Shown here one piece after another: positions 6,190 through 27,174 of a DNA stretch of 64,000 nt (the first letter of the stretch is position 1; every line of letters starts with the position of its first letter). Made by a program: the position numbers and the translations under genes. The notes under the pieces were generated by a model. That model worked only from the letters and a program-made list of their open reading frames with translations, did no database searches and had not been told where the DNA came from. Source of the DNA: Alphaproteobacteria bacterium (GTDB taxonomy: Bacteria; Pseudomonadota; Alphaproteobacteria; Micavibrionales; Micavibrionaceae); assembly GCA_028282385.1 (NCBI GenBank), contig JANQIB010000098.1, forward strand, positions 4,502 to 68,501. Reading direction: 5' to 3'.

Positions 6190-6191
6190 AT

Positions 6192-9007: not shown

Positions 9008-9009
9008 GT

Positions 9010-9501
9010 TTATGCCTCCACTAACTTATAAAAAATATGCCGCCCAATAATTATGACCGGCTCTTCGCCTTCCGCCCAGTAAGGTGAAACATAATCCGCA
9101 TGATAATGCGTTGCCCCTTTTGTCCGGTCAGGTAGAACGTTATTGACGGCGCGCCGGGAAATTCGCTGGCAGGTTACAAATTTCTTATCCTGCTCCGTAA
9201 CCGCAATAAGCTTGCGGTAATTCGGATCAGATCTGTTCCAGCAGGAAAACTGATAAGGTTTCTGGCATACGCTAATAATGTCATTCCCCCACCAATATTT
9301 TCCACCGCGCGCCTGTGCAACGCGCACACGATTCAGCACGACACTGGCAACTGCTTCCATACCCTCCAGGCTTTCCGCGCGCGCCTCTCCCCAGATTGTC
9401 CGGGCAAGCACATCTACCGCAAGCTCATTATAAAAAGAGACAGACTCTACTTCATCCGCTTCTTCTTTCGTGAAGAGCGGTTTTAAAAACCGTATAACCA
9501 T
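9010..9501 (-). CDS. cell wall hydrolase, SleB/Hydrolase_2 family (endolysin)
   Basis: LARTIWGEARAESLEGMEAVASVVLNRV...CQKPYQFSCWN is the SleB-type signature. Confidence 0.8.
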   Translation of the reverse strand: MVIRFLKPLFTKEEADEVESVSFYNELAVDVLARTIWGEARAESLEGMEAVASVVLNRVRVAQARGGKYWWGNDIISVCQKPYQFSCWNRSDPNYRKLIAVTEQDKKFVTCQRISRRAVNNVLPDRTKGATHYHADYVSPYWAEGEEPVIIIGRHIFYKLVEA

Positions 9502-9511
9502 TTAAATTTTC

Positions 9512-9835
9512 CTATTCCTGTTTAGATCGTAGCGCTTCTGCTTTCAGCGCGGTTTGGTCAAGTTTTGTTTCAATTCGTAAAAGATGCGTTACAATCCGTT
9601 CTTCCAGATCCCTGACATCTGTCACGGATGCATAACTTTTTGCGACCTCCAGTTTAAACGCATAAAGCGCTTCGCGTAGCTGCGAACACCGCAGTTCAAG
9701 ATTATCATGCAGTATGCCGATTGATTTTCCAGACTCCTGACGCCCCTTCCAGATCAGCCAGAACAGCGCAGACATGGCCGGTAAATCAACCGCCGTAATC
9801 CACCAGATTAATCCGCTATCAAGTAGTGTATTCAT
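9512..9835 (-). CDS. N-terminally membrane-anchored coiled-coil protein (possible i-spanin or lysis accessory)
   Basis: 107 aa. A TM segment (LIWWITAVDLPAMSALFWLIW) is followed by heptad-like helices. It sits between terminase and endolysin. Confidence 0.35.
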   Translation of the reverse strand: MNTLLDSGLIWWITAVDLPAMSALFWLIWKGRQESGKSIGILHDNLELRCSQLREALYAFKLEVAKSYASVTDVRDLEERIVTHLLRIETKLDQTALKAEALRSKQE

Positions 9836-9849
9836 TCATAAATTTCCTT

Positions 9850-11340
9850 TTAGACTTCAAATTCCGTTTTAGCTGAGTGCATTTGTCCGCCGCCTTGCCA
9901 CTGAAGACGGTCCGTGTGATAACTTCGCTGAACACGCACAGATTGCTGGGACAGGGCACCAGCAACCGCATCAAGCCCATCATCCTTCTGCCCTTTAAGA
10001 CCAGGGCGCCAATCCTGCATTTCAGTTATAAAGGGCGTTTTGTAGACACGTTCATGTACATGCAGCGCGCGCGCAGCGAGCACCGCATCAAAACCTTCTA
10101 AAATACGCAAATCTTTTGCCCGTGATGAATTGACCTCTGTAACTGCGCACGGGACTTTTTGCTCTGCCATCTGCGTACGCAAAATGGCCGGCAAAAACTT
10201 TCCAATGCCGTTTGTTTCTACGGTAACCGAGGGAATAAAATGCTCCCGCGCAATTCGTGCCACCTGCATGGACTGACTTACCGCTTCTTCTTCAGCCAAA
10301 GCCGGATCGTGCCGTAAATAAACCAGATCATGTAAATAATACTGCCCGACTTCATCACAAAAAATCACAGCCAGAACGGACGCATCTCCTTTTGCGCTTC
10401 CAAAAGAAGGATCCCACCAGGCCGAACAAGACACGAGACGCCGCCCTTCCAAACGAAGCTGCAATGTCTGCTGACTTTCTGAGGATTGCAGCTGCGATCC
10501 GTAACGCCTGAGTAAATTCGGATCCAGGCGGCTTTCACTCACATTGAGCGGCTCCAACAACATTTGTGAGGCAAATTTTTGCGGACCTGTCTGCGTTTTT
10601 ATCTGCTTAATATCTTGAAGTGTAAATTTCTCAGGCCAGCTACTTTCTCCATCCTGATCAATCAGGGGGATAACAAGGCGCTTATAATCTTTTAAAAAAA
10701 TGTCTTCTATTCCAAGTTCCGGCTTTGGTGCATCAAGATAAATAGACTCCCATGTATGAGGTGTACCTAAATAAATCTGTACGCCGCCCGGAACAAGAAT
10801 ATAAGATGTCTCTTCAAGCCGTTCTCTAAGATCTTGCCGCTTCTCCGGAGTCTCGCATGTATTAGGAACCTCAACATCATCACAAATGATAATATCGGCC
10901 CGAAGTCCTGTAATATTGGAATGAATACCGCGCGCAATCACCGAAGGGTCACGCTGGACCTGCCCCCGCTTAACGGTCAGACGATCTGCCGCCCACTCCT
11001 CCTTTTTCTTCGGAATGAGAGGCTTCGTTAAAGGATGTGTCTGGATGATCTTGCGAATATTGCGGACCATCTTGGACGCCAGCGTCTGTTCGGCCGCTAA
11101 CACCAGGATACGCAAATCCGGATCCCTGTAGAGCAGCCATGCCGAGAACAGAGTGGTGAGCGACGACTTGCCGCTTCCGCGAAAGGCCTTCAGCAGTAGC
11201 CGCGTCTCTCCATGCGCCCAACACACTTCGAACCAGCGCGCGATTCTGAAGTGAATCAGGGGTGTTGAATAATTTTGTGTCCTGTTCCATAGCGCTAAGA
11301 ATACTCCAAAATCGACTTCTTTTGTAGTGTTTTTATCCAT
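9850..11340 (-). CDS. phage terminase large subunit
   Basis: 496 aa. Walker A is FRGSGKSS and Walker B is ADIIICDDVE, with a C-terminal RNaseH-like nuclease region (AWWDPSFGSAKGDASVLAV). Confidence 0.85.
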   Translation of the reverse strand: MDKNTTKEVDFGVFLALWNRTQNYSTPLIHFRIARWFEVCWAHGETRLLLKAFRGSGKSSLTTLFSAWLLYRDPDLRILVLAAEQTLASKMVRNIRKIIQTHPLTKPLIPKKKEEWAADRLTVKRGQVQRDPSVIARGIHSNITGLRADIIICDDVEVPNTCETPEKRQDLRERLEETSYILVPGGVQIYLGTPHTWESIYLDAPKPELGIEDIFLKDYKRLVIPLIDQDGESSWPEKFTLQDIKQIKTQTGPQKFASQMLLEPLNVSESRLDPNLLRRYGSQLQSSESQQTLQLRLEGRRLVSCSAWWDPSFGSAKGDASVLAVIFCDEVGQYYLHDLVYLRHDPALAEEEAVSQSMQVARIAREHFIPSVTVETNGIGKFLPAILRTQMAEQKVPCAVTEVNSSRAKDLRILEGFDAVLAARALHVHERVYKTPFITEMQDWRPGLKGQKDDGLDAVAGALSQQSVRVQRSYHTDRLQWQGGGQMHSAKTEFEV

Positions 11341-11348
11341 ATTAGAAA

Positions 11349-11657
11349 CTAATAATCTTTCTCTGTGCCAAGCGTTTTCATAGCGCCATCATATTCCTGC
11401 CTTGCTTCTGACAAACTTGCTTTGAGCAGCATATTATCTTCCATGCTTTCAAGGTTTTCATATTCAGCCAGCTTCAATAATAATTCGAGATGAGCTAAAG
11501 CTGCCCGGCAGGCTTTATGATGCTCACCAAACTCTTTAGACTCATTTGGAGCGATTTGACCTGAAAAATTCCGGTAAGAATTTACCGCTCTTGAAATTGC
11601 AACCGGTAAAAAGGTTGCAATTTTCCTGCGCTCCTGCGCATCAATCCGATCATCCAT
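11349..11657 (-). CDS. hypothetical protein in the small-terminase position
   Basis: 102-aa helical ORF immediately upstream of the large terminase, as T7 gene 18 is. Assigned by position only. Confidence 0.3.
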   Translation of the reverse strand: MDDRIDAQERRKIATFLPVAISRAVNSYRNFSGQIAPNESKEFGEHHKACRAALAHLELLLKLAEYENLESMEDNMLLKASLSEARQEYDGAMKTLGTEKDY

Positions 11658-11667
11658 ACTGAAAGCC

Positions 11668-13692
11668 TTAATTATGTTTTGAGACGATGTACCAGGCAGC
11701 CCCGTTAGACACGACTGTAATCGCGCTATACTGGCTGGATAATGGCTGAGCAGAATTATCCGGACCTGTTCCGCCCTGCTCCGTCACTGTTACAGCGTTG
11801 GCAGAACTATCTGTTTTCTTGATCGTGATCGTCCGGCCAATTGCTTCTGCTGCATTCGCTGGCGGAAGTTGTGCCGTGACAACGCCGCCAAAGGATGAAA
11901 TCAGATACGTATCGACTGCCATATCAATATTGTATGTTCCGGTTCCTTCAAAAAATCGGGTGTTGCCGGGTGCCCGGTTTGAAGAGATAACAAACCATTC
12001 CGCGCCATTTGAAATCATCTGGACAAAATCATTTTCTGCGCCCAGGTAATAGCTACGCCCATCCGGTCCGCTTCCACCTGTTTCACCAATCGTAATCACA
12101 TTCGCAGAACTATCGATTTTTTTAACCACCATCATCATGCCTTGCGCATCAGATGCGTTTGGCAAATTCACTGTAAGAGCGCCGCCAAAAGATGAAATCA
12201 AATGCACAGAATGAGATTCATCAAGATTTAACGTTCCGGAAGTGTCCGCGTATTCCGTATCATAGCGCTGCACTGTTGCGTTGATATCTGTGACAGTTGT
12301 CTGTTGAAAACGGTTCTTATACGGATAACCTGCATTATAGGCGGTATATTCCCCGCCGGAAAGATCCCAGATTGCCGATCCGTCCGATGCAGAAAGTAAA
12401 TTATAAATCGCTGTTTCAATCGATCCGCTTTCAAGTTTTACATTCGGCACACCGTTATTGGATTCTGCGTAAGGATTCACCAGCAATGTCTTATTTGATC
12501 CTGCGCCAATGATAAAGCACCCTTGCGCCGTCCCTTTGACATTGGCCTCACAATCAATAAAAGCATTATTGAATGAGCCATGCTCAACATAAAACCCGGC
12601 ACCCGTGATATCTGCGCCCAGAGAATAAACCCGGCAGGCATGAAACTTGTTCGCATTGGGTGTATCTCCAGCCCCGCTTTTAGCCAGGTGAAATCCATGT
12701 GTATTCGGCTGCACCACTAAAACACGGTTAAAGTTATTCCAGTAACAGGGCTTGGCCGTATCCGTATACCCGTCCAGCTTCACTCCAACATTGGCCTGCC
12801 AGATTGTGACATCGACAATAGAAGTCTGGACACAAGGACGATCTTTCCCGTACAGCAAAATCCCATTATCGCTGTTTTCTATTCTAAGGTTAGAGATAGA
12901 GGCATAATCCGCCGGCACTTCAATTGCGTTAAAGCTGTTATCCTGGCAGGAAAGAACAGAAGTTTGGCCGGCCCCGAACAAAGTTTGACGCTCCCCGACC
13001 GTGATTGTCCCGGTGATAAAATAACTACCAGGCGGAATATAGACGCTGTCATGCGCTGTTAAAGCCTGCTGGATCGCCAGCGTATCATCGGTTAGTCCGT
13101 CACCTTTTGCACCAAAATCTTTGACTGACACGAAATCAGAAAATTTATCGCTTGAGGTTCGCGTGACCGCACCCGTACCGGAGGCTGTATAATCCGGCGA
13201 TGCCATCGATCCTTCCAGAGACACTGCAACCGGGTCACCATCACCATCAAATCCCAGCGCTTTATTCGCGCGTTGCGTGCGATCTGGCAGCACCGTTTCT
13301 CCCGGCGTTTCATAATCGCTATAGCGCAGCATCGGTGAAAGATCCCGATCTACCTGCTGAAGACCTGCTGTCAGATAGTCCAGTTCCGTATTTATAGCCG
13401 CGGCAGAGAAACCTCCACCTTCAAGAAAGTCTGTTAGCCGCTCAAACGGCAGTCGGCGCTCAAGCGTAAGAACGATACCGCTTGATGGCGCAATATCAAA
13501 AGTGACAGTTCCGCCAGATGTTTCTCCAACATCAGAAATATCGTAACCACTTGTCTGCAATGCGCCATCAAAATAAATTTTTAAATCTTCACTGGCAAAA
13601 ATTGAAAAAGGGTAAGTAAAAACGGTTTGTGAACCATTGGCAACGTAGCGCACAAGCGGTTCTACCGCCGGCACCTTAACATGCTCAGTCAT
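11668..13692 (-). CDS. tail fiber/tailspike with a pectate-lyase-like beta-helix and a duplicated C-terminal module
   Basis: 674 aa. The N-terminus (RYVANGSQTVFTYPFSIF..DLKIYFDG) is typical of phage fibers. VKDFGAKGDGLTDDTLAIQQAL is the Pectate_lyase_3 motif. Two C-terminal repeats of about 80 aa follow. Confidence 0.8.
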   Translation of the reverse strand: MTEHVKVPAVEPLVRYVANGSQTVFTYPFSIFASEDLKIYFDGALQTSGYDISDVGETSGGTVTFDIAPSSGIVLTLERRLPFERLTDFLEGGGFSAAAINTELDYLTAGLQQVDRDLSPMLRYSDYETPGETVLPDRTQRANKALGFDGDGDPVAVSLEGSMASPDYTASGTGAVTRTSSDKFSDFVSVKDFGAKGDGLTDDTLAIQQALTAHDSVYIPPGSYFITGTITVGERQTLFGAGQTSVLSCQDNSFNAIEVPADYASISNLRIENSDNGILLYGKDRPCVQTSIVDVTIWQANVGVKLDGYTDTAKPCYWNNFNRVLVVQPNTHGFHLAKSGAGDTPNANKFHACRVYSLGADITGAGFYVEHGSFNNAFIDCEANVKGTAQGCFIIGAGSNKTLLVNPYAESNNGVPNVKLESGSIETAIYNLLSASDGSAIWDLSGGEYTAYNAGYPYKNRFQQTTVTDINATVQRYDTEYADTSGTLNLDESHSVHLISSFGGALTVNLPNASDAQGMMMVVKKIDSSANVITIGETGGSGPDGRSYYLGAENDFVQMISNGAEWFVISSNRAPGNTRFFEGTGTYNIDMAVDTYLISSFGGVVTAQLPPANAAEAIGRTITIKKTDSSANAVTVTEQGGTGPDNSAQPLSSQYSAITVVSNGAAWYIVSKHN
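11671..12216 (-). repeat. intragenic tandem duplication (two modules of about 80 aa) at the tailspike C-terminus
   Basis: HLISSFGGALTVNLPNASDAQGMMMVVKKIDSSANVITIGETGGSGPDG...NGAEWFVISSN compared with YLISSFGGVVTAQLPPANAAEAIGRTITIKKTDSSANAVTVTEQGGTGPDN...NGAAWYIVSKHN. Confidence 0.85.
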
Positions 13693-13715
13693 AATGATCT
13701 CCTCTATAATATAAG

Positions 13716-14255
13716 TTATAACAGGCTAATAATGGAATTCGCGTTTCCTAAAAGCCCTTGCGCAAAGGAATTTGCATTTGAAACATTGCTCAGTTTTTGA
13801 CGCTCTTTTAGTTGTGTTTGCTGTAAAACATTCAGACGTTTACGCTGGGCCAGGTCAGTATCCAGGGCGTTGAGACGCAAGTTATCAAGCGCTTCACGCT
13901 CCTGCCTCTCCTCTTCTGATTCTTCAAACAAACCAAGCAAAACCGCCTGGGCTGAACCACCCGCATTTGTATCAATACCGCTTGCTCCAAATTTTGCGCG
14001 CTGACGTGCTGTTGCCCGCTTTAATGCATCACGACGTTCTTTTTCCGCCGATTCTGATTCAAGCTTGATTTTTTCACGTTCAAGCGCTGCGTTTTCTTTA
14101 GCTACACGCAACTCCGCCTGTTGTTTTTGTTGAAGCTCTTTAAGCGCAAGATCTTGCGCCTCACTCTGATCATTATACCCACTCACCGTATCAACAAGTC
14201 CTGACACAATGCTAAGCCCCTGTATCACCGGGGCGATACCACTCAAACCGGCCAT
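13716..14255 (-). CDS. coiled-coil virion protein candidate (internal/ejection protein position)
   Basis: 179 aa. A Gly/hydrophobic N-terminus is followed by a long charged coiled coil. It sits between tubular B and the tailspike. Confidence 0.35.
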   Translation of the reverse strand: MAGLSGIAPVIQGLSIVSGLVDTVSGYNDQSEAQDLALKELQQKQQAELRVAKENAALEREKIKLESESAEKERRDALKRATARQRAKFGASGIDTNAGGSAQAVLLGLFEESEEERQEREALDNLRLNALDTDLAQRKRLNVLQQTQLKERQKLSNVSNANSFAQGLLGNANSIISLL

Positions 14256-14277
14256 ATCAATCTCCTTTGATTTACAA

Positions 14278-16176
14278 TTAGTCGTTAAATTTAATTTCCG
14301 CAGTCACGGATAAAAGCGTGAAAGGGTAAGGGATGCTCTGCTCGATTTCCCAAAGAGCATCGACACCGTTTTTCTGCCAGCCAAGTGAACGAACAGCAAT
14401 ATCCCCACTGATTACCGGCGGCGGCGCATCCAGAATTTCATCTTCACCAAAATCTTTCAGCGCGATATCCTGAAGCCCTCTTCCCGTATCAAGGCGTAAA
14501 GCCTGCGTTTCCTTCAAACGGAAAATCGCTTCGATCAATCTGAGCTTAATACCAAATCCGCCTTCTCCAGCAGATGTTGGCGGCAAAGGTTTAATCTTGT
14601 GCGTATAAGACAGGCCGATTTCAACTTTCAAAGCAGGCTCTGATAAAATCACTGCACCTGAAGAAACAGCTTGATCATCCTGAACAATATCATCTGCGAT
14701 GATAGAAACAGTTTGCCCTTCAAGATGATCTAAGCCGGACCATGTTGCAGTTGCCGTTCCAACCTCTCCCGTTAAAGCCGAGTCTAAAGTAAGAGCATCA
14801 TCAAATAGCTCAATCATGTAAGAGCCATCTCGCTCTACTAGAAGATAAACATCATCTCCAACCACAGAAACCGATTTCACATTTCCCTGTGTTTCATGAA
14901 GAGTCCAGGCTGCGACCTGCTCCGCCCGATAAACAGTGAGTGTTGCAAATTTTCCATCTTCCCGAACAATAAAGAGAAGCCGGCGCGTTGCATCAAAATC
15001 CTGATCCACCGGATCAATAATAATGTGCCGGGAAAGCAAAGCCAGATCTGTCGCCTGATAAGCTTGTTCAATATCGGTATAAAGAAATTCACGAATTTCA
15101 TTCTTATTCCGGGCAACAAACAAAGTTGCACCATCGACCGTTACCGGCGGTATATAGCGGTCAATCACAGATCCAACACGTGTCTGTCGATTAAGCTGAA
15201 CCGTTTCCGGAGTTAGAGGATCTCCAGTAACCATCCATTCCGCACCAGAGGTAAAAACCTGCAAGTGACGGCCGGAAAAAATACCCCGGATCGCGTTGAC
15301 CTGATCAGACAAAATCGCAAATTCAATAGATTCATCATCCAACCCCTCGCCAATATCAAAATTGAAGAGATCTCCAGATTTTGAAAACCAAAGCCGGTTC
15401 GGAAGATCACGAGAACCTCCAATCACCAGCCTATCCTGGTGAAAGGCAACCGAAACCGGATAACCGCGCACCGGGCTAAAGGCCTGCTCCTGCCAGTCAA
15501 TCGTTGCATCCGTTGAGAGCAAATCTTCAATCGTTGTGACTGTCACAACAGTCGGTGAATCATAACTTGTAATTTCAACTTCTTTTCCTCCAACGCGCAG
15601 ACGGGTTCCCGCATGCAGCGGATCAAAACTATCTGCAGATGCCGTCAGTGTAATTGACCCTGTGGTGCCACTTGGCGTTAAGGTTACCGTGCTTTCTGCA
15701 AATTTATAATAAGGCTGATAGACGATATTCTTATCCGTAAAAAAATCCCAATCCAGAAGGGAAAATGTTCCCCCGCTATCACGGATCAGTCTTTTCGGCG
15801 CATAATCAGGATGTGTCATCAAAAGCGTATCGGCGCTCTGTGTCCAGGCAACCTGACTGATTGTACTCGCCGGCCATGGACTTGAAAGCGTACTTACCTT
15901 AACACCGGAAGCATAAATATCAATTTGGCTGTCCGTTAGCACAAGCAGATAAGTTTGCTGTGTGTTGAATTCAAAAGCGATTAAACGCCCGTCCCCGGCC
16001 GCCGTATCGATATAAGAGAGCCCTGCGCGGCGGGTTACACCGCCGGTTGGAAAGATAAAAAGGTTGCGCAATTCCTGCGCACCGTTTTCATAGGCGCGGA
16101 GATCACCCCGCCCCAAAAGCTCGGGTGAAACCTCCCCGGCGGTAAAATTGGTTTTAACTTGCCTGATCCGTGTCAT
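14278..16176 (-). CDS. tail tubular protein B-like (nozzle)
   Basis: 632 aa. The N-terminus (VKTNFTAGEVSPELLGRGDLRAYENGA) parallels the T7 gp12 N-terminal pattern, and the gene follows the tubular A gene. Confidence 0.55.
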   Translation of the reverse strand: MTRIRQVKTNFTAGEVSPELLGRGDLRAYENGAQELRNLFIFPTGGVTRRAGLSYIDTAAGDGRLIAFEFNTQQTYLLVLTDSQIDIYASGVKVSTLSSPWPASTISQVAWTQSADTLLMTHPDYAPKRLIRDSGGTFSLLDWDFFTDKNIVYQPYYKFAESTVTLTPSGTTGSITLTASADSFDPLHAGTRLRVGGKEVEITSYDSPTVVTVTTIEDLLSTDATIDWQEQAFSPVRGYPVSVAFHQDRLVIGGSRDLPNRLWFSKSGDLFNFDIGEGLDDESIEFAILSDQVNAIRGIFSGRHLQVFTSGAEWMVTGDPLTPETVQLNRQTRVGSVIDRYIPPVTVDGATLFVARNKNEIREFLYTDIEQAYQATDLALLSRHIIIDPVDQDFDATRRLLFIVREDGKFATLTVYRAEQVAAWTLHETQGNVKSVSVVGDDVYLLVERDGSYMIELFDDALTLDSALTGEVGTATATWSGLDHLEGQTVSIIADDIVQDDQAVSSGAVILSEPALKVEIGLSYTHKIKPLPPTSAGEGGFGIKLRLIEAIFRLKETQALRLDTGRGLQDIALKDFGEDEILDAPPPVISGDIAVRSLGWQKNGVDALWEIEQSIPYPFTLLSVTAEIKFND

Positions 16177-16195
16177 ATTTACTCCTTTTCACACA

Positions 16196-16222
16196 TAAAA
16201 AAACCGCCCTCAAAGGGGCGGC
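16196..16222 (-). terminator. rho-independent terminator after 16247..16654
   Basis: On the minus strand: ccgcccc-tttg-agggcgg followed by TTTTTTAT. Confidence 0.75.
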
Positions 16223-16246
16223 TTAACAAAAATAATTTTTTTATAC

Positions 16247-16654
16247 TTATTTTTCACGCTCAATAGCTTTATCGGCCTGCTCAAAGGTCGCAATGAACAA
16301 ATCTTTAAAATAAATTTTCAAATCTGCGACAATATCTGATTGAACATCTTCGACTGTACTATCTGGACTAGAATTATGCTCATACTTGTTTTGATAGACT
16401 TCTTCGGCATACCTACGAATATATTGATCGCATTCTTTTATGGAATATTTTAGAGACCGGTTTAAAAGCACATCACGGTCTACAATCTTCGCTAGATTGT
16501 CTGACATAAAATCAACGGCTTTTTCTTCTACACACAATAACGATTTCTGCCTATAACCAGTCATATAAATAAGATCAGGGCGCAAAATATGAATAAGCGC
16601 CATTGTGTAGATAAACAAAAAAATCATAAATATTGAAATGGATTTTTTATTCAT
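16247..16654 (-). CDS. small N-terminally anchored protein, partner of the 180-aa PG-binding protein (immunity-like candidate)
   Basis: 135 aa. The TM segment is ISIFMIFLFIYTMALIHIL. The start overlaps the upstream stop (ATGA-type coupling at 16651-16654). The region is AT-rich by eye. Confidence 0.4.
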   Translation of the reverse strand: MNKKSISIFMIFLFIYTMALIHILRPDLIYMTGYRQKSLLCVEEKAVDFMSDNLAKIVDRDVLLNRSLKYSIKECDQYIRRYAEEVYQNKYEHNSSPDSTVEDVQSDIVADLKIYFKDLFIATFEQADKAIEREK

Positions 16655-17193
16655 ATAACACCATCATCATTTTCTCTCTGATGTTTAATAATTTCTTCCA
16701 TAATCTTAAATTGAGGATTCAATTTTCCCCCACTTTTTAAGAAGTCAAAAATCTTCTTATGGTCTTTTAGTTGCTCTATAAGATCTTTGACTTTTTCATT
16801 ATCTTTTAGATTATCCATTGTTTCCTTTAGAGAATCAAAGAAATTATCATCCTTACCAAAATCCGGCTTTCTTTCCGGCAAAGGCGGTTTCGATGGCTTC
16901 TTTGGTGGAATGGGGGGAAGTTCAGATTCAGGTGTATCATCGCTTTGAGTTTGTTTTAACACTGTATTCAAAGCAACTTCTGTTTCCCCGCCGGGGTTCA
17001 TAATCCGGTCCGGTTTAAGATCATTGTCATACTGAAAAGCTAAAATCGCATCGTCGAGCTCCCGGTCGATAATCCCGTTTTCAACCGGGCGGTTATAATA
17101 GCCGGCCTTCGAAAAAGCCCGCTTTGCCTGCAATACGTCTTCATCATCATTCTCCAGGTTATTTCCGACAGGGCGGTTTATTTTAAAACGCAT
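16651..17193 (-). CDS. peptidoglycan-binding-module protein with a PPLPERKPDF junction and a short variable C-terminal domain
   Basis: 180 aa. PVGNNLENDDEDV...GYYNRP..GIIDRELDDAILAFQYDNDLKPDRIMNPGGETE is PG_binding_1-like and paralogous to modules in 21466..23475. Confidence 0.6.
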   Translation of the reverse strand: MRFKINRPVGNNLENDDEDVLQAKRAFSKAGYYNRPVENGIIDRELDDAILAFQYDNDLKPDRIMNPGGETEVALNTVLKQTQSDDTPESELPPIPPKKPSKPPLPERKPDFGKDDNFFDSLKETMDNLKDNEKVKDLIEQLKDHKKIFDFLKSGGKLNPQFKIMEEIIKHQRENDDGVI

Positions 17194-17195
17194 TC

Positions 17196-17765
17196 CTACC
17201 CCCTCACATCAATCAACGTAAAGTTTTCAAGCCTGTTCGGACTATCCTGCTGCGCATCAACCTGACGCGCGGCGGCAAATTCCTTTTCAGCCATCCGGGT
17301 TAGCGTTTCAGCGCGTGATGTGCTTTCGGTAACCGGAATACAAAACTCGGCTGCCAAACGGGCTATCAAAGCCGTATCAAAGAACGGTGGAAACTCTTCC
17401 TCCTGAGGCTGATAAATATAAGTTAAAATAACTTCATCCGCATTAGCATGCAGCTGTCCTTGTAAAATACGGTAATGAAGCCCACGCCCTTTACCGCCAT
17501 TGCCGGCAGAAATGGCACGTAGAAAATCACTCGGCAGTTGAAAAGCGTTTTGATAATCTGCAAGCGGACTCTCGCTCAGCTTGTTTAACTCCACCTGCCC
17601 TGTTGCAAATGTCCAGGGATAAGCCGATAACAAAGCATCGCGCGCAGGCGCATAAAGAATCGAAGCAATTTCTGATTCTGCTGTGCCGTCATCAAATGAA
17701 CTAATCGGGGCGGCGCCAAGACGCACAAGCGCACGGCTGCAAAGCCCAACATCGTTGAGTGCCAT
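17196..17765 (-). CDS. tail tubular protein A-like (adaptor)
   Basis: 189 aa. MALNDVGLCSRALVRLGAAPISSFDDGTAESEIA...YPWTF parallels the T7 gp11 N-terminal pattern. Confidence 0.6.
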   Translation of the reverse strand: MALNDVGLCSRALVRLGAAPISSFDDGTAESEIASILYAPARDALLSAYPWTFATGQVELNKLSESPLADYQNAFQLPSDFLRAISAGNGGKGRGLHYRILQGQLHANADEVILTYIYQPQEEEFPPFFDTALIARLAAEFCIPVTESTSRAETLTRMAEKEFAAARQVDAQQDSPNRLENFTLIDVRG

Positions 17766-17789
17766 ATTTTTTCTCCTGTTGTTAATGAA

Positions 17790-17822
17790 TAAAAAAAGCG
17801 GCCTTATGGCCGCTTAAAAAAT
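17790..17822 (-). terminator. rho-independent terminator after 17839..18243
   Basis: aagcggcc-ttat-ggccgctt flanked by A and T runs. Confidence 0.8.
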
Positions 17823-17838
17823 ATTGGTTTCAAATTTA

Positions 17839-18243
17839 TTACGCTGCCAGCAAGGGTTCGTAACGTGGAGCGTTTTGCATTGAAGTTCCAAGGTTATAGT
17901 TTCCTGATCCCTCTCCTGCATGAGCTCGACGAAAATCCGTCATCATAAAATCTGCAACTTTAATCTGCGTAGTTTGCAAGTTTTGTGAATGCTCTTCTTT
18001 CACTTTTTCATTAGAATTAAGCATGTCATATACTGCCCATGCCTGTATTTCAGTGCCCCTAAAGACTGCTCCCTGAGGCGTATAAATAACATTCAAAATG
18101 CCGTGACGAGCAAAAGCTTCAGAAAGCTTTTCTGTTGGTTCTCTTTCTTCTTCAAAAGAAATATCTTCCGGACGCACACTGGCAGGAAACCCGCCGCTAT
18201 GCGGAATTGAATAATAACCCGTCTGCAATGCCTGCACAGACAT
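17839..18243 (-). CDS. hypothetical protein (moron-like, bracketed by terminators)
   Basis: 134-aa ORF with no recognisable motif. Confidence 0.4.
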   Translation of the reverse strand: MSVQALQTGYYSIPHSGGFPASVRPEDISFEEEREPTEKLSEAFARHGILNVIYTPQGAVFRGTEIQAWAVYDMLNSNEKVKEEHSQNLQTTQIKVADFMMTDFRRAHAGEGSGNYNLGTSMQNAPRYEPLLAA

Positions 18244-18329
18244 GAATATTTCACACCCTTTTTGTTTTTAGTTGATGATTTTCTAAAATATCAGCATTAC
18301 TAAAGACAAATTTACTTTCTAAACACTTG

Positions 18330-18381
18330 TTAAATAAAAGAAATTTCCGCCCTGACCCAACAGGGCCAAAAGGCGGAAATC
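18330..18381 (-). terminator. rho-independent terminator downstream of the capsid gene plus 79-aa gene
   Basis: On the minus strand: atttccgcc...ggcggaaat stem followed by TTCTTTTATTT. Confidence 0.65.
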
Positions 18382-18494
18382 CCGGTTAATACAAAACGGA
18401 CGCTTTCTCAAACGCGCCCAAAGACTGCTTTAGGGGGGTTCGTGAAGGGGAGGAAAAGTAGAACACTCACCTAAACAGTCCGCACACCCAACGA

Positions 18495-18734
18495 TTAGGC
18501 GTACACCGCAATCGTCACTGCGCCGCTTGTAATATCGGTCACAATATAAAATTTTGTGGCCGGCGTGCCGTCTGTATCAACATTCGCAATGATGAGGTCG
18601 TTGACATTCATCATATCGGCTGCGTTATCAAAGTAGTTAGCTGTGGTGACAGCATCATCAGCTGTTGTGTAATGCCACAGCGTAAAGTTGTTCGCATAAG
18701 CGAGCACACTTAAATCAGAAAGTTTTAAAGCCAT
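18495..18734 (-). CDS. small protein following the capsid gene (possible head decoration or minor capsid protein)
   Basis: 79-aa ORF starting 30 nt after the capsid stop. Assigned by position only. Confidence 0.35.
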   Translation of the reverse strand: MALKLSDLSVLAYANNFTLWHYTTADDAVTTANYFDNAADMMNVNDLIIANVDTDGTPATKFYIVTDITSGAVTIAVYA

Positions 18735-18764
18735 TGCTTATCTCCTTTTATGTTAGCTGTGGTT

Positions 18765-19607
18765 TTAAACAGGGGTTTCGTCACAATCGATAACGACAAT
18801 TCCTGTATCATCGACAAGAGCAGCGCCCTGACTCATCATATTGTTGACGAAATGCGCCGCACGATCTCCATGCCAGGTTACATCTGTTTGAACATCAGAA
18901 CCTGACGCATGGCCGATAGCCGTTTTGTGATAATAGAAACAGGAACGCACACCACCAGCATCTACCGGAAGTCCGGAATGCGGGATCCAGATCGTTCCAA
19001 GCCACATCTTGGCCTGTGTGATACTTGAATATGGAAGCTCCGTATTGCCAATATAGTCAGCATTGACGAACTCTTCGATTTGCAGCAAATCGCTCCATTG
19101 TTTCCAGCCGACGACTGCAAAACGCTGACCGTCATCCGGAACATCGGTATCCCCGAAAATTTCAAATGCTTCGAGGACTTTATCTTTCGTCAGACCAGTA
19201 TTCGCATCGGCAATTGTATTCGTAGACGCCGTTGCAAGCGCATCAATAACCAACTCATCGGTTTTACGGCCCAGCGCATGTGCACCGGCAGACGCAATCA
19301 CCTGACGTTCGTCATGGTTAATTTTCAGCTCATCCATTTTATCAACCCAGTCACCGGCATAAAAATCTTCAAGCAGACATTCAATGCTGGAGTGAGCCAG
19401 GTTCATCACAGGAACCATTCCGTGTGTTGACTTGGTCGAAGCCGTTCCCTTACCGACTTTTTGGAAAGTCGTTGAGGCGCCTTTAACATTGCCGACAGTA
19501 CGCACAGTGTTCCTAAGCTTGGACCCCTGGCGTTGATAGGCTTCGTGCACTTCGCGCTCGAACTGCTTGACGAAGGCCTGATCAATAGTGACAGACATAT
19601 TCTTCAC
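18765..19607 (-). CDS. major capsid protein (T7 gp10-like, short form)
   Basis: 280 aa. FVKQFEREVHEAYQRQGSKLRNTVRTVGNVKGASTTFQKVGKGTA mirrors the gp10 pattern F..EV..A....L...VR...G...F...G...A. The late YYHKTAIGHASG resembles FMHRSAVG. Confidence 0.7.
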   Translation of the reverse strand: MKNMSVTIDQAFVKQFEREVHEAYQRQGSKLRNTVRTVGNVKGASTTFQKVGKGTASTKSTHGMVPVMNLAHSSIECLLEDFYAGDWVDKMDELKINHDERQVIASAGAHALGRKTDELVIDALATASTNTIADANTGLTKDKVLEAFEIFGDTDVPDDGQRFAVVGWKQWSDLLQIEEFVNADYIGNTELPYSSITQAKMWLGTIWIPHSGLPVDAGGVRSCFYYHKTAIGHASGSDVQTDVTWHGDRAAHFVNNMMSQGAALVDDTGIVVIDCDETPV

Positions 19608-19926
19608 CTTTCGTAAAAGTTAAAATTTAGAGAAGTTCAGTTGCACGGGACTTTGGGTTGGCAGCCAGCAAATGCGACCGGCCCGTCACGGCAAACAGGT
19701 CTGCCCACAGGCGGCAATCATCTCAAAGAAGAGAAAAACCGTTTTCTGATCAGCAGATATAAATAGGGAAAAACCGCTACGTCGGCGGAATGGCAGAAGC
19801 CAAAAAGACGCAGTTATGGCGTTGATAACTCTACTTATAGGAATAATTTCTTATTTTGTCAAGAAATAAATTGCATTTTTTGCAAAAATCTTTATATATA
19901 TACATAATTAAAGATGGAGAGAGAAA

Positions 19927-20313
19927 ATGTTTACATCCCTCGCACGCGTCCTGAAAACAAGGGACTTTGAAAATCAGGCATCGAACCGTCGCATCGCGCC
20001 CCGGCGTGAGGTCGACCAGTGCGTTGGCATGATTGAGGGCAAAAACTATCCGGTCGAAAACTGGAGCGATACGGGCATACTCTTTGCCGGTAACGATAAA
20101 CTCTTTTCAATCGGAGAACCAAAATCCATCGACCTGAAATTTAAACTTGCCGAAAAAGTGATTACAGTTTCGCACCGGGGTAAGATCGTCCGCAAAGCCA
20201 AAAATAAATTTGCGATCGAATTTGAACCTCTCACCCGTGATATTCAAAACAAATTTCAACAAATCGTCGACGATTTCGTCACCCAGGAATTTGCCGACTC
20301 TCAGATGGTTTAG
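19927..20313 (+). CDS. PilZ domain protein (c-di-GMP receptor candidate)
   Basis: 128 aa. RRIAPRRE fits the RxxxR motif and NWSDTG fits the D/NxSxxG motif with appropriate spacing. It is on the opposite strand to the phage genes and has an AT-rich upstream region. Confidence 0.7.
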   Translation: MFTSLARVLKTRDFENQASNRRIAPRREVDQCVGMIEGKNYPVENWSDTGILFAGNDKLFSIGEPKSIDLKFKLAEKVITVSHRGKIVRKAKNKFAIEFEPLTRDIQNKFQQIVDDFVTQEFADSQMV

Positions 20314-20536
20314 TTTCCTCTCTAATCATCCGTCCCGTGGCATCGAAGATTGGTTTTTCTTTTGGAAGAGGCGGCGTGTCTTCGCTTTCCTCAAACGCGA
20401 AAGTGCCGTTTGAAGTAAAGACGGAGTTGCTTTCACTGCGCTCAACCCTGCCCGTTTCGGCAGGACTATTGGCATCAGCTTGTTGTTTTGCCTTTAACGT
20501 TTCAAGCGCCCCAGCACCAGATGCCCCGGTCTTGTT
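20279..20536 (-). pseudogene. orphan fragment of the 669-aa gene (central region through PPLPKEKPIFDATGRMIR), without a start codon
   Basis: Hand translation gives NKTGASGAGALETLKAKQQADANSPAETGRVERSESNSVFTSNGTFAFEESEDTPPLPKEKPIFDATGRMIREETKPSESRQIPG*. It is preceded by an in-frame TAA and has no ATG. Confidence 0.8.
20322..20512. repeat. direct repeat copy A (191 bp, 8 mismatches versus copy B)
   Basis: Aligned by eye against 22160..22350. There are no indels and the offset is 1838 bp. Confidence 0.9.
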
Positions 20537-20566
20537 TTATACCTAATTATTACTTATTCTACATTT

Positions 20567-21007
20567 ATGTTCAGAATAATTTTTATTGCTCTTGTGTTTT
20601 TTTCTTCTGCTACGCAAGCTGCAGAAGATTTCTGGGACAAACCGCCACACCCTAACGGGTGGTATGGTTATGATGAAACACTCCCTGATCTGCTGAACAT
20701 CAAAGGCTTAACCTACCATGAGGCAAGGCCCATTATCATTGGTGCCGGCTGGGAACCATTGCAAACTCTTCAGGAGGGCACACATGATTACGAACAAGGT
20801 ATAACCCTGTCCGGAGATGGCCCAAAGTTTTGGAACAAAAGTTATTATGAACTGCAAACATGCACTGGATCAGGTATGGCATACTGTGCTTTTCTTTTCC
20901 AAAACAAAAATGGCGACCGGCTTCGTATCGTAACTAAATATGAAGAGCATGAAGAATATTCATCTTTTGCTAAAGTCGCAGGCTACAGATTTATGCCCCA
21001 AGACTAA
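20567..21007 (+). CDS. secreted hypothetical protein
   Basis: 146 aa with the signal peptide MFRIIFIALVFFSSATQAAE. The gene is AT-rich and on the opposite strand. Confidence 0.5.
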   Translation: MFRIIFIALVFFSSATQAAEDFWDKPPHPNGWYGYDETLPDLLNIKGLTYHEARPIIIGAGWEPLQTLQEGTHDYEQGITLSGDGPKFWNKSYYELQTCTGSGMAYCAFLFQNKNGDRLRIVTKYEEHEEYSSFAKVAGYRFMPQD

Positions 21008-21204
21008 TTTTTCTCCAGAAAATCCTTTAAAGTTTTGAAATCAGTCAGCGCTTTATTGTTTAAAACGCCATCATAACGACTTTTATTTGAAGCATCTGGT
21101 GGAAGTGATGCCCATTCACTGGCTAATTCTTCTATCAATTTTTTCGTGCTGATTTTACCGGATTTATATTTATCAAACCCTCTGTATTCCAAAAGCCTAT
21201 ACAC
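21004..21204 (-). CDS. small ORF resembling the C-terminal part of a lambda-R-type (GH104) lytic transglycosylase; probably a gene remnant
   Basis: LASEWASLPPDASNKSRYDG..NKALTDFKTLKDFLE compared with lambda R CSNIWASLPGAGYGQFEHKADSLIAKFKEAGG. The N-terminal catalytic part is absent. Confidence 0.3.
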   Translation of the reverse strand: MYRLLEYRGFDKYKSGKISTKKLIEELASEWASLPPDASNKSRYDGVLNNKALTDFKTLKDFLEKN

Positions 21205-21252
21205 TTCATATCTTTGATAAAAAAGACAGCCTAAAAATCAGCGGTACACTTT

Positions 21253-21453
21253 CTAGTAAGCTAAAAACAATCCCACAACTATTGCTAAAACCATAAGGCT
21301 CAGAATACATCCGGTAAAGGCTCCTAGAAAAACACCTCGCCAAACAGGTTCCTGTTTCCTTGCAAAAGAAACACAACCGACTAACGCCCCTACAACCATC
21401 AAGAAGAAGAGAAAGAAAGCCGTTAACATTTCAATATCAAAAGAGCCATCCAT
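21253..21453 (-). CDS. two-TM small membrane protein directly downstream of the 669-aa gene (immunity-like candidate)
   Basis: 66 aa with two hydrophobic helices (FFLFFLMVVGALVGCVSF and GAFTGCILSLMVLAIVVGLFLAY). The gap after the upstream stop is 12 nt. Confidence 0.45.
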   Translation of the reverse strand: MDGSFDIEMLTAFFLFFLMVVGALVGCVSFARKQEPVWRGVFLGAFTGCILSLMVLAIVVGLFLAY

Positions 21454-21465
21454 ATTCTGAAACCC

Positions 21466-23475
21466 TTATTTGTTTTCTTCAGCATCCTCCCATGTTAGTC
21501 TTGGATTTACAAGCTCGCCTCCTTTGATCTGGACAGTACCTGTCACTTTTTGTTGCCATTGAGAGTTTATATCAAAACTTTTTGCGCGCCCTTCTTTTTC
21601 AAGAATGGTGGCCCCTCCTCCTCCACTTTGCAAAGGGTCAAAATTGTATTTATCTGTCCATTGATGAGTGACCGTACCATCAATCAAAATAGTATTTCCT
21701 TTTCTTTTTACTTTAAAGTCACCTCCAGACTTAACAGAACTTGTTCCTGTTGCCAAAGCTTCATCCAAATCCCCCTTCAAAAGATGACTTCTGGATAGAT
21801 CTGCATTACGAATCATCGTTTTAATTGGAAAATTTCCAACTTTATAATCCCAATTATCTTTCACTTCCATTACTTCATCCTCTTTCATATTTAACAATTT
21901 AGAGCCTATACCTTTCTTGTCTGTGAAAGATTTTGTGAATCTATCTCGGTTAACTCTTTCTCCATTACGCACAAAAAGCTTTTCACGAACCTGATCTCGA
22001 CTAAGCGCCTTATCTTCTCCTGATCCGTCTAAAAAATGCTCCAGATTATCTGCCGCTTCATTTAAACCTTTTTTATGTCCTTGATCTACATATTCTCTAT
22101 AAACATTTTCAATTGTGTCCAAATATTTTTCTTTATCGTAGCCTCCAAGCTCCTCCTTCCTAATCATCCTTCCCGTAGCATCGAAGATTGGTTTTTCCTT
22201 TGGAAGAGGCGGCGTGTCTTCGCTTTTCTCAAACGCGAAAGTGCTGTTTGACGTGAAGACGGAGTTGCTTTCACTGCGCTCAACCCTGCCCGTTTCGGCA
22301 AGACTATTGGCATCAGCTTGTTGTTTTGCCTTTAACGTTTCAAGCGCCCCGGACGGTCCGCCCGTTTCACCGCCGCCGTCAAACAGGCCAGACGCCGCAC
22401 TGCCCAAACTCCCGGCCAGCCCCTGCGCCGCCTGTGCCCCCGATGCAACGGCAGGCAGGATTTCATTGATTTTGGTCAGCACATCACCGTCGCTCTCCAG
22501 AGCGTCTTTCGTATTAAAGAAAGCCTGCGTGCCGCTTAAGGCCTGGGATGCAATCCCGGCAATCGGCCCGCCAACCGCGCTCAATCCCATCGAAACAACA
22601 GGCGCAAAGGCGTTAATCTTATCCGCTGTTGAACCTTCACCTTTAACGGCATCGATAACACCTTTAACAAAAGACGCAGCTTGAGCAAAAGCTTGCTGTG
22701 TTTTTTCCTCGCCTTGCAGGCGCATAACATTTTTTATAGCTTCAATACCCTGCTCCGTCTCACCGCCCGGGTGAACCAGTCCATCCTCTTTCAGACCCAG
22801 TTGACGTTGAATATTCTTAATAGCATCGCTCGTTTCCCGGTCAAGAAAGCCTGTCGGGTCACTGAGTTTATCTTTTGGCAAAAGTCCAAACTCTCCCAGC
22901 CTGCCCTGAAGGCCGATCACATCACGCTTGCCATTTTCAAGGTTATTTCCAACAGGACCTAAAAGTATGGGTTCCCTGACATTTATCAGGATATCGTCAT
23001 CTTCTTCAAAACCATTTTCCGGCTCACGTGGGAGATAACCGTTTTCTAAAATACGATCATACCAACCAGTAATACCTTCATCCAAATCATCATCTTGTTT
23101 TTCCATGGTGCGCAACGGTGGTGGTTTATCCGTATCAAGCATAATTGAATGATGTGGCTCATCGAATTGTGTAGATTCGTCTGCCTCAAGTGTCTGCATT
23201 GTCTCCCCATCTGGCTTGATGATCCCGTCAACTTTCAAGCCCTTATCTTTTTGATATTGTTTGATACCATCGAACAGTGCTTCGTCCGTATAGGGCGTGA
23301 TGCCGTAATCGGGGAGATCGTAATAACCGCGCGAGCGTAAAGCGTCTTTAATTTTCAAAACATCTCTACCGCGCGCCGCGCTATTGGAAGAAATAATATT
23401 ACTTATTCTTAACATTGAAAAAAACCTCTTAAAAAAATCCCCCGCGCAGGGAATGCGCGAGGGGAAGTTGCTCAT
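21466..23475 (-). CDS. modular protein: two peptidoglycan-binding modules, a Gly/Ala-rich region, a PPLPKEKPIF junction and a ~230-aa C-terminal domain of unknown function
   Basis: 669-aa ORF. An AAGAGG Shine-Dalgarno favours the internal ATG at 23415 (649 aa). The PG_binding_1-like segments are GRDVLKIKDALRSRGYYDLPDYGI..ALFDGIKQYQKDKGLKVDGIIKPDGET and PVGNNLENGKRDVIGLQGRLGEFG...SDAIKNIQRQLGLKEDGLVHPGGETE. Confidence 0.65.
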   Translation of the reverse strand: MSNFPSRIPCAGDFFKRFFSMLRISNIISSNSAARGRDVLKIKDALRSRGYYDLPDYGITPYTDEALFDGIKQYQKDKGLKVDGIIKPDGETMQTLEADESTQFDEPHHSIMLDTDKPPPLRTMEKQDDDLDEGITGWYDRILENGYLPREPENGFEEDDDILINVREPILLGPVGNNLENGKRDVIGLQGRLGEFGLLPKDKLSDPTGFLDRETSDAIKNIQRQLGLKEDGLVHPGGETEQGIEAIKNVMRLQGEEKTQQAFAQAASFVKGVIDAVKGEGSTADKINAFAPVVSMGLSAVGGPIAGIASQALSGTQAFFNTKDALESDGDVLTKINEILPAVASGAQAAQGLAGSLGSAASGLFDGGGETGGPSGALETLKAKQQADANSLAETGRVERSESNSVFTSNSTFAFEKSEDTPPLPKEKPIFDATGRMIRKEELGGYDKEKYLDTIENVYREYVDQGHKKGLNEAADNLEHFLDGSGEDKALSRDQVREKLFVRNGERVNRDRFTKSFTDKKGIGSKLLNMKEDEVMEVKDNWDYKVGNFPIKTMIRNADLSRSHLLKGDLDEALATGTSSVKSGGDFKVKRKGNTILIDGTVTHQWTDKYNFDPLQSGGGGATILEKEGRAKSFDINSQWQQKVTGTVQIKGGELVNPRLTWEDAEENK
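22160..22350. repeat. direct repeat copy B (inside the 669-aa gene, codons ~375-439)
   Basis: See copy A at 20322..20512. Confidence 0.9.
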
Positions 23476-23480
23476 GAAAA

Positions 23481-24116
23481 TTAACTATAGAGTTTCTGGA
23501 AGCCTTCTGTGACCTTGGCAATGAAAGACGGATCTTTATCTCTCCAGTAACGCGGATCGCGCATCATCGATTGCAAGTCGAGCTCGGCGCCGTCTGGGCC
23601 ACTTTCGCCTTTAGAAGTCTCTAGACCAGGCTCCTCACCCTTCATCATATTATGAAGTGCGAGTATGCCCTCAAAGGAGCTGGCCAACGTATCGAGGACA
23701 TCCTCAGGCAGTTGTTTTTGACCAAAGGCTAAAAGCTGCCGTGACATTTCAGCCCATTTTTCGGGCCCACCAAAATGGTTGACAAGTTTTTCAATTTCCC
23801 GGTCAGCTTCGTAATCGGAAGCCATTTGAACAATCATCGGCACCATTTTTTCTGCTGCCAAATCGTAGATAAACTGCACTTGATCTTGGGTAAATCCTTT
23901 CTGATGAAGCCGTTCATTCAACTCCTCATCAGCATCAAACAGACCGTGCTTACAATCCACACAATATTCTTTGGCGCTTTTGGGAGGCCGGGGCTGACGT
24001 GAAAATCTCTGTTCAAGTTCGTTATAAGATTTTACAAGGTTATCAAGATTTACATTACCTGTTTCCGGATCTTTAAACTTTTCCGGAACAGAAGTTTCTA
24101 AAAGTGTTTCAGTCAT
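23481..24116 (-). CDS. capsid assembly scaffolding protein
   Basis: 211 aa. VPEKFKDPETGNVNLDNLVKSYNELE is the typical podovirus scaffold N-terminus. The protein is acidic and helical and lies downstream of the portal gene. Confidence 0.65.
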   Translation of the reverse strand: MTETLLETSVPEKFKDPETGNVNLDNLVKSYNELEQRFSRQPRPPKSAKEYCVDCKHGLFDADEELNERLHQKGFTQDQVQFIYDLAAEKMVPMIVQMASDYEADREIEKLVNHFGGPEKWAEMSRQLLAFGQKQLPEDVLDTLASSFEGILALHNMMKGEEPGLETSKGESGPDGAELDLQSMMRDPRYWRDKDPSFIAKVTEGFQKLYS

Positions 24117-24146
24117 TATTTTCTCCTTTGATTGAAATATTAAAAT

Positions 24147-25944: not shown

Positions 25945-25948
25945 ATTT

Positions 25949-26224: not shown

Positions 26225-26235
26225 TTTTTTTCTCC

Positions 26236-27136: not shown

Positions 27137-27143
27137 TTTTTAG

Positions 27144-27174
27144 CAAAAGCAGGATTTATGTTCTGCTTTTGTTC
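27144..27174. promoter_or_regulatory. candidate operator: GTTC-N7-GTTC (alphaproteobacterial SOS-box form) overlapping a 9-bp inverted repeat
   Basis: GTTC at 27160-27163, tgctttt, then GTTC at 27171-27174. The inverted repeat is CAAAAGCAG (27144-27152) and CTGCTTTTG (27163-27171). The site lies 24-38 nt upstream of the first cluster gene and about 85 nt upstream of the divergent repressor. Confidence 0.5.

Follow-up and report, generated by a model that had tools for sequence, protein, structure and literature searches.

Temperate phages encode polymorphic toxins of the MuF type within their morphogenesis modules (Jamet et al. 2017, PMC5576092; Zhang et al. 2012, PMC3482391). In some toxins, the PG_binding_1 domain has been described as an accessory or as a fusion at the N-terminus (PMC3482391, PMC10673891). 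Some type VI secretion system (T6SS) effectors carry N-terminal adaptor domains, among them fusions with PG_binding_1 in vgrG loci (PMC10673891). Here, we describe a two-gene cassette in a 64,000-nucleotide (nt) stretch, called the window, of contig JANQIB010000098.1 from an alphaproteobacterium of the Micavibrionaceae. The window is bacterial chromosome (icd, nhaA, folD, PBP2, rodA, and an alphaproteobacterial ATPase zeta inhibitor) that contains a phage-like element of ~19.5 kb (~8432-27906). The element has a T7-like cluster encoding a portal, a scaffold, the major capsid, gp11, gp12, a gp14-like protein, a tailspike, and a terminase (TerL). Between its gp11-like and gp12-like genes lie two open reading frames (ORFs), one for a protein of 180 amino acids (aa) and one for a membrane-anchored partner of 135 aa. 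It is well supported that this pair is a cassette of a large polymorphic family, in which a PG_binding_1-type head is followed by a proline-rich junction and exchangeable tails.

The nearest precedent is the MuF toxins, and the cassette would work most like polymorphic toxin/immunity systems. As with MuF, the genes lie in a (pro)phage morphogenesis module, a conserved N-terminal phage-associated domain precedes hypervariable C-terminal domains, a small, possibly cognate gene adjoins, and delivery by the particle is proposed. However, the carrier here is a head of the PG_binding_1 (peptidoglycan, PG) type and the hosts are Alphaproteobacteria, not Firmicutes. The sites differ as well: in a T7-like cluster, they lie between gp11 and gp12 and between scaffold and capsid. 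A large share of the tails here are envelope-directed or non-enzymatic, and members also occur outside prophages. Pfam scans detected no MuF domain in the 180-aa protein, in a 669-aa protein encoded at a sister locus of the same element, or in 111 family proteins, and the family is therefore not a member of MuF.

The 180-aa protein consists of a head, a linker, and a tail. The head matches Pfam PG_binding_1 (PF01471) over residues 17-66 with 31.2 bits (cutoff 23, E=2.6e-7). AlphaFold2 (AF2) models residues 1-85 with a predicted local distance difference test (pLDDT) score of 87-97. In a Foldseek search, the head matched the SleB N-domain (TM-score 0.86, root-mean-square deviation 2.0) and also the PG-binding domains of CtpB and phiKZ gp144, with probability 1.0. 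The fold match comes from the structure search alone, as the head profile had no match among PDB sequences. BLASTP aligned the head with both head copies of the 669-aa protein (E=1e-10 and 4e-8). The PG-binding module that a first, sequence-only reading of this DNA had seen in the two proteins is thus confirmed by both BLASTP and Pfam. A disordered linker spans residues 86-115 of the AF2 model and carries the motifs PPIPPKKP (16894-16917) and PPLPERKP(DF) (16858-16887). The latter span had been assigned to KPPLPERKPDF; it holds PPLPERKPDF, while the leading lysine codon is one codon further 5', at 16888-16890. The helical tail of about 70 aa noted in the sequence-only reading is modelled as 68 aa with helices at residues 117-127, 133-153, and 160-174, at low confidence (pLDDT 46-66). 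The protein has neither a signal peptide nor a TM (transmembrane) segment.

The head defines a large family with highly diverse tails. The sequence-only reading had proposed a profile search with a tabulation of C-termini. A head-profile search of 1.84 billion representative proteins, clustered at 50% identity, returned 5,079 clusters with E<=1e-3, of which 1,570 reached E<=1e-10. In a database search, 20 proteins shared just their first ~75 residues with the 180-aa protein, at 50-68% identity. All 111 members examined begin with the head, present once or twice, and the tails behind it range from 4 to 470 aa. When 106 tails were compared by BLAST, they formed 52 clusters, including 37 singletons. 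Pfam recognised Phage_lysozyme, GH108, Peptidase_M23, DUF6973, and one Ntox44 among the family tails; no mention of DUF6973 was found in the literature. By inspection, other tails are SLT-like, or are Cys-flanked coiled-coil hairpins with a glycine-zipper loop, or combine a hydrophobic segment with four cysteines. Recent tail replacement is most clearly indicated in three members (P0009, P0010, and P0162), which share 96-97% identity across 80 head residues but 5-15% in their tails. Scanning with the head alignment for more loci yielded none in viral contigs and only seven in metagenomes.

Base composition breaks at the junction. The head is phage-like, with a GC content of 0.46 and a GC content at third codon positions (GC3) of 0.50. 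GC3 is 0.27 in linker plus tail, and the GC of the tail is 0.34. The partner gene has a GC of 0.33 and a GC3 of 0.32. The flanks have a GC of 0.47-0.50, and the flanking tail genes a GC3 of 0.41-0.44. Over 16800-16900, GC drops from 0.49 to 0.26-0.37 with a breakpoint at the 3' end of the linker, and in both window proteins (180 aa and 669 aa) the GC3 drop starts directly after the junction motif. Because GC3 stays low from the junction through the partner gene, tail and partner look like one import. They were imported as one AT-rich block, bounded by the junction and the terminator. The pair as a whole had been described as AT-rich, which holds for tail and partner after the junction and does not hold for the head.

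The junction is a motif of the family. The sequence-only reading had held it to be common to the 180-aa and 669-aa proteins; the pairwise match is not significant (E=0.074), and the claim stands at the level of the family. The pattern PP[LIV]Px(1-3)[KR]P follows the head or heads in 8 of the 111 members, compared with 0.20 +/- 0.47 (maximum 3) in shuffles that kept local composition. The PP[LIV]P motif is also present in three further loci, L092, L094, and L004. In the 669-aa protein, the junction is PPLPKEKPIFDATGRMIR at residue 422. A longer junction, KPxFDATGRM[IV]R, is common to the 669-aa protein, P0032, P0168, P0020, and L004, which have different tails. Homology between the 669-aa protein and P0032 extends as far as the junction, and beyond it the two are unrelated. 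DNA identity between the two window junctions does not extend beyond ~10 nt, and the motif is therefore kept at the protein level, with no trace of recent paralogue exchange. We know of no described pre-toxin motif in which PP[LI]PxxKP is followed by FDATGRM[IV]R.

The cassette is coupled to late tail-gene expression. A spacing of 2 nt separates the gp11-like stop from the 180-aa start, the 180-aa stop and the 135-aa start share an ATGA overlap, and the terminator closes the cassette, with the gp12 start codon 25 nt further on. This bears out the overlapping pair of the sequence-only reading, in coordinates, minus strand, and ATGA, as well as the strong terminator that it placed before the tubular B gene, a 9-pair stem plus T-run at 16224-16201. 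It had further stated that the pair breaks the usual gp11-gp12 adjacency. A gp11-relative scan of 80 viral loci, 74 of which have both tail genes, agrees with this: the gap is <=21 nt in 69 of the 74 (median 2) and 1,019 nt in the window. Just upstream of gp11 there is another strong hairpin that resembles a terminator (17796-17815, minus strand), so that gp11 and the cassette are enclosed by two terminators inside the late operon.

Inserts of more than 100 nt between gp11 and gp12 were found in just four loci, all in the clade nearest the window. The 180-aa gene is absent from ~90% of the related clusters, close relatives included. The four inserts and those of three further elements, found by protein look-ups, differ in their cargo (Table 1), and the gp11-gp12 site is therefore an insertion hotspot with changing content. 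In L007, a close relative without an insert between gp11 and gp12, the gp14-like gene is followed by genes for a 165-aa protein with head and helical tail and, convergent to it, for a four-TM protein (GC 0.22; 5784-6671). This site is a third hotspot for such cassettes. Among GenBank phages, blastn of 14000-19700 gave a sole match, to an unannotated fragment (12% coverage, 66% identity), and tblastn of the 180-aa protein gave none; no annotated relative was found.

These features recall phage morons. Like a moron, the cassette is inserted between genes that are adjacent in relatives, deviates in composition (from the junction on), and has its own terminator. Unlike morons, it shows no promoter of its own above chance. 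Since the head third of the 180-aa gene is phage-like and coupled to gp11, the exchanged unit starts inside a gene and not between genes. Phage endolysins and virion-associated PG hydrolases with PG_binding_1 domains, such as phiKZ gp144, have the N-terminal fold of the head, and lysozyme, SLT, or M23 domains form some of the family tails. The 180-aa protein differs from these enzymes in having no catalytic domain, and the element encodes its endolysin separately.

Table 1. Features of the cassette, its element, and inserts at the gp11-gp12 site of related loci (window positions)
Feature	Position	Strand	Description
Tail tubular protein A (gp11-like, 189 aa)	17196..17765	-	phrog_394, E=4e-46; upstream flank
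180-aa ORF	16651-17193	-	head, linker/junction, and tail
Head, residues 1-80	16954..17193	-	PG_binding_1-type three-helix domain; signature PVGNNLEN...MNPGGETE
Proline-rich linker and junction, residues 81-112	16858..16953	-	disordered, AF2 pLDDT <50
Variable tail, residues 113-180 plus stop codon	16651..16857	-	charged, three helices (hairpin-like), 68 aa
135-aa ORF (partner)	16247-16654	-	N-terminal TM; AT-rich
Intrinsic terminator	16201..16224	-	9 stem pairs, 6 of them G-C, then TTTTTAT
Tail tubular protein B (gp12-like, 632 aa)	14278..16176	-	phrog_376, E=3e-148; downstream flank
669-aa protein	21466..23475	-	two heads, Gly/Ala-rich middle, AT-rich C-terminal 'domain X'
66-aa two-TM protein	21253..21453	-	12 nt after the 669-aa stop
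Orphan 3' fragment	21004..21204	-	no start codon; stop codons upstream in frame
146-aa secreted protein	20567..21007	+	signal peptide; convergent to the 669-aa locus
Endolysin	9010-9501		separate lysis module (8432-9835)
Holin-like gene	8432-9007		separate lysis module
L005 gp11-gp12 insert			259-aa head-plus-coiled-coil protein and convergent 225-aa TM protein
L086 gp11-gp12 insert			274-aa family member, two Sel1-like secreted proteins, two-TM peptide
JGI locus gp11-gp12 insert			114-aa head-only protein and two small genes
L087 gp11-gp12 insert			339-aa family member and three-TM protein
L106 gp11-gp12 insert			293-aa family member and multi-TM protein
L006, L011, and L013 gp11-gp12 inserts			unrelated small ORFs

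The sister locus encodes the 669-aa protein, in which everything after the junction is domain X. This domain has three relatives and no PDB relative. It was also considered as a domain of classical toxin carriers, which was rejected: it occurs just on PG-headed proteins or alone. At three of three loci (the window, the chromosomal island L105, and the related element L106), a homologous two-TM gene of 63-66 aa follows the domain-X gene after 1-12 nt (E=2e-5 and 4e-7; L105 7241-7432, L106 7244-7441). The copy in L106 is absent from the source gene calls. The orphan fragment beside the 669-aa locus shares 52% identity (E=2e-19) with the final 60 residues of P0078, in its lysozyme-like tail. It is what a tail replacement left of an earlier tail at this locus. 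The 146-aa secreted protein has three paralogues in the L105 island, beside the domain-X gene (E=9e-72, 5e-14, and 3e-10). Paralogue arrays, tandem or dispersed, are frequent among downstream partner genes. In addition to the three 146-aa-type genes in L105 (7241-10641), they comprise two 73%-identical copies in L089 (6546-8059), two Sel1-like proteins in L086 (3289-4838), and two N-anchored proteins in L098 (6760-7872).

Polymorphic toxins such as CdiA-CT/CdiI, Rhs, and T6SS effectors likewise show displacement of the C-terminus at a conserved junction, orphan displaced tails, arrays of partner paralogues, and AT-rich imported blocks of tail plus partner. In contrast to these systems, the flanks here have no genes of type V, type VI, or type VII secretion systems, no PAAR, no Rhs, and no LXG, and there is no signal peptide. 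The tail has only 68 aa and no toxin domain. Lacking a defined delivery system, the cassette does not qualify as a bona fide polymorphic toxin.

The class of the tail and the class of the neighbouring gene vary together. Among family genes with a neighbour within 300 nt, 16 of 29 neighbours were TM-like, compared with 21% of similar-size ORFs in the same loci (naive ORF calling; Fisher p=1.1e-4). Coiled-coil/glycine-zipper tails occur with Sel1-like secreted proteins (twice in L086, and in L106; E ~1e-16 to 1e-21) and also with small multi-TM proteins. Tails with a TM segment and four cysteines occur with a protein family of ~165 aa in L089 and L091, as a tandem duplicate in L089. Covariation is thus seen for sister tail classes, while the partners of the window, L092, and L094 are alike in layout only.

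Some family members sit in chromosomal loci without phage genes, and two of these reproduce the layout of the window pair. In an alphaproteobacterial metagenome-assembled genome (MAG), guaA and a pseudouridine synthase gene flank the islet L092. The alignment of its 160-aa protein with the 180-aa protein continues through the junction (E=4e-27), and the gene for the 160-aa protein is overlapped by that of a 130-aa N-anchored protein with two cysteines. The islet L094, in an alphaproteobacterial MAG as well, encodes a 194-aa protein with PPLPQRKPKKPPLPGQKP two genes after motB, and this gene overlaps a convergent one for a 125-aa N-anchored protein with two cysteines. Outside phages, too, a head is thus followed by a PP[LI]P junction and a tail that is short and helical, next to an N-anchored two-cysteine protein of ~130 aa. 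After the junction, the window tail is marginally similar to that of L092 (z=2.4, reached by 16 of 500 shuffles) and shows no similarity to that of L094.

The partner begins with two lysines, followed by a TM helix at residues 3-24 and a helical domain of ~110 aa, so that the N-terminal anchor noted in the sequence-only reading is confirmed. The single-sequence AF2 model is all helical (pLDDT 72.8), and the protein has two cysteines, C41 and C75. The predicted topology is N-in/C-out, and therefore the helical domain would be periplasmic. The partner had no match in Pfam, PHROGs, NCBIfam, or PADLOC, and no fold match in the PDB (best Foldseek E=1.1). The partners of the window, L092, L094, and L093 have in common an N-terminal TM, two similarly spaced cysteines, and a C-terminal LKxxY[FY]xKD-like motif.

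The tail may be a variable effector, with the membrane-anchored partner as the cognate protein that binds or neutralises it in the periplasm; we hold this reading tentatively, as one that falls a little short of probable. The head would dock the protein on PG in the periplasm, the proline linker would serve as an extended spacer, and the short helical tail would be the variable 'business end'. The periplasmic helical domain of the partner, probably disulfide-stapled, would bind the cognate tail, and the partner would act as an immunity-like neutraliser guarding the cells that carry the element. Other members would use the same head with lysozyme, M23, SLT-like, DUF6973, Ntox44, or glycine-zipper tails and with envelope-protein neighbours of their own.

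Several results weigh against this reading. The tail has no recognisable toxin or enzyme domain in Pfam, PHROGs entries of known function, NCBIfam, or PADLOC, and its AF2 confidence is low. It also had no homologue in a protein database search. A word-indexed search of 5.8 billion proteins returned no homologue of the partner but the partner itself. A relationship among the partners of the window, L092, L094, and L093 was considered and rejected as unproven: BLASTP gave E values of 0.17-1.6 outside the TM, Smith-Waterman comparisons of the pairs gave z <0.5, and leave-one-out hidden Markov models scored no better than shuffles. Because the partners are not demonstrably homologous, the coupling of tail and partner is argued from repeated architecture and not from sequence. 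Promoter-like sites, one of them at 16810-16838, number 17, compared with 16.9 expected by chance, and no promoter from which a lysogen might express the partner stood out above chance. A signal peptide was found in none of the ~115 family proteins examined, no secretion-system genes were seen in the flanks examined, and many neighbour genes are convergent instead of operonic with the head gene. Endolysins and virion-associated hydrolases, which are not toxins, typically combine PG binding with a hydrolase as well. Of the exchangeable effector/immunity-like cassettes proposed in the sequence-only reading, the cassette family stands, on its tails, GC break, orphan fragment, covariation, and TM-enriched neighbours. 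The other part, the effector/immunity label, is plausible but unproven, in view of the tail without a toxin domain, the partner without a homologue, the missing signal peptide and secretion system, and the many convergent partner genes.

The pair could instead be two ordinary morons that travel together without a specific interaction. The 135-aa protein would then be a lysogenic-conversion or superinfection-exclusion membrane protein, and the 180-aa protein a non-toxic PG-binding accessory. The site is a general hotspot that also holds unrelated small ORFs in L006, L011, and L013, the AT-rich block ends in its own terminator, small membrane proteins are often encoded by AT-rich morons, and the partner lacks homologues, all of which would fit. 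We nevertheless regard this explanation as unlikely, since the ATGA coupling and the contiguous AT-rich block that starts inside the 180-aa gene point to co-acquisition and co-expression. In addition, the two-gene layout is repeated in the non-phage islets L092 and L094, and neighbours are TM-enriched, with tail and neighbour classes that covary in the sister classes. A virion-associated or ejected accessory has a lower probability still. Here, the head would anchor to PG while the genome is ejected, as a non-catalytic counterpart to the virion-associated hydrolases, with the 135-aa protein as an assembly chaperone or membrane helper. Translational coupling of the 180-aa gene to gp11 in the tail operon is consistent with this proposal, as is an element without gp15/gp16-type ejection proteins, and particle delivery would fit the absent signal peptide. 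The lysozyme, SLT, and M23 tails found elsewhere in the family are typical of virion-associated hydrolases. However, the tail of the 180-aa protein has no catalytic domain. As the gene is missing in ~90% of related clusters, close relatives included, it is no essential part of the structure, and phage-free chromosomal loci hold family members as well.

Lysis timing or envelope tethering by a bitopic protein resembling an i-spanin or antiholin, together with a PG-bound partner, is improbable. Rz-type i-spanins and T4 RI resemble the 135-aa protein in layout, with an N-terminal TM, periplasmic helices, and two cysteines. The 180-aa protein is proline-rich, as o-spanins are, and late expression would suit such a pair. 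Against this, a separate endolysin/holin-like cassette lies at 8432-9835, chromosomal copies exist outside any phage, and the 180-aa protein has neither a lipobox nor an outer-membrane anchor, with no embedded lipoprotein ORF. The spanin/lysis-cassette form of the idea was ruled out by the separate lysis module and the absent lipoprotein. Decay is the least credible alternative, and we consider it highly improbable that the tail and the 135-aa ORF are relics or chance ORFs in an AT-rich spacer. Tail and partner both lack homologues, the sister locus holds an orphan tail fragment, and the element, without integrase and replication genes, is possibly defective. Yet both frames are intact and tightly coupled with a clean terminator behind them, the partner model is a coherent TM-plus-helical-bundle fold (pLDDT 72.8), and the identical 180-aa/135-aa pair was found in an independent read-set assembly.

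If the effector/neutraliser reading is true, a PG-binding head without a signal peptide would be a new carrier type for polymorphic effectors. It would also be a second, independent case inside phage particle clusters, here in Alphaproteobacteria including predatory Micavibrio. Such a head might reach the cell wall by particle ejection, through holin lesions, or by way of the flagellar export apparatus. In a bolder and improbable extension, the element would be a domesticated particle producer that serves as an inter-bacterial weapon, loading PG-headed polymorphic effectors and releasing them or injecting them into the periplasm of neighbours. Its exchangeable warheads would be the cassettes of tail plus partner at the gp11-gp12 and scaffold-capsid sites, and the immunity genes would protect kin. 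Such a weapon would parallel the proposed MuF system, but in Gram-negative bacteria and aimed at the envelope. A conservative reading still defines an unannotated family of ~5,000 clusters, a conserved recombination junction, and two insertion hotspots of T7-like modules, which are useful for the annotation of prophage cargo.

Family members in identified genomes belong to Micavibrio, Rhodospirillales, and related MAGs. In the loci L088-L104, the family is concentrated in Micavibrio and in Rhodospirillales-type MAGs (Curvivirga, Pelagibius, Magnetovibrio, Terasakiella, and Thalassospiraceae). Micavibrio are epibiotic predators. Two chromosomal members are located in flagellar loci (L004 5524-6349 and L094 3999-6944): the former is near FliG, FliMN, MotA, and FlhA, and the latter is the islet after MotB. 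The head gene of L004 is probably split by a frameshift, since the next ORF carries FDATGRMVR...PPLPQNKP.

The element has a CI/S24-type repressor in addition to its particle, packaging, and lysis genes. No integrase, replication genes, gp15/gp16 homologues, or flanking tRNA were found in 8432-27906. The element may be a defective prophage or a domesticated particle cluster resembling a gene transfer agent. L106 has the same EamA flank and is without everything from gp12 to the lysis genes. A PilZ-domain gene (19927-20313, plus strand) lies on the opposite strand between scaffold and capsid, and L005, L106, and the JGI locus each have a PilZ gene in the corresponding position. Such conservation of cyclic-di-GMP-related cargo in a head module is unusual.

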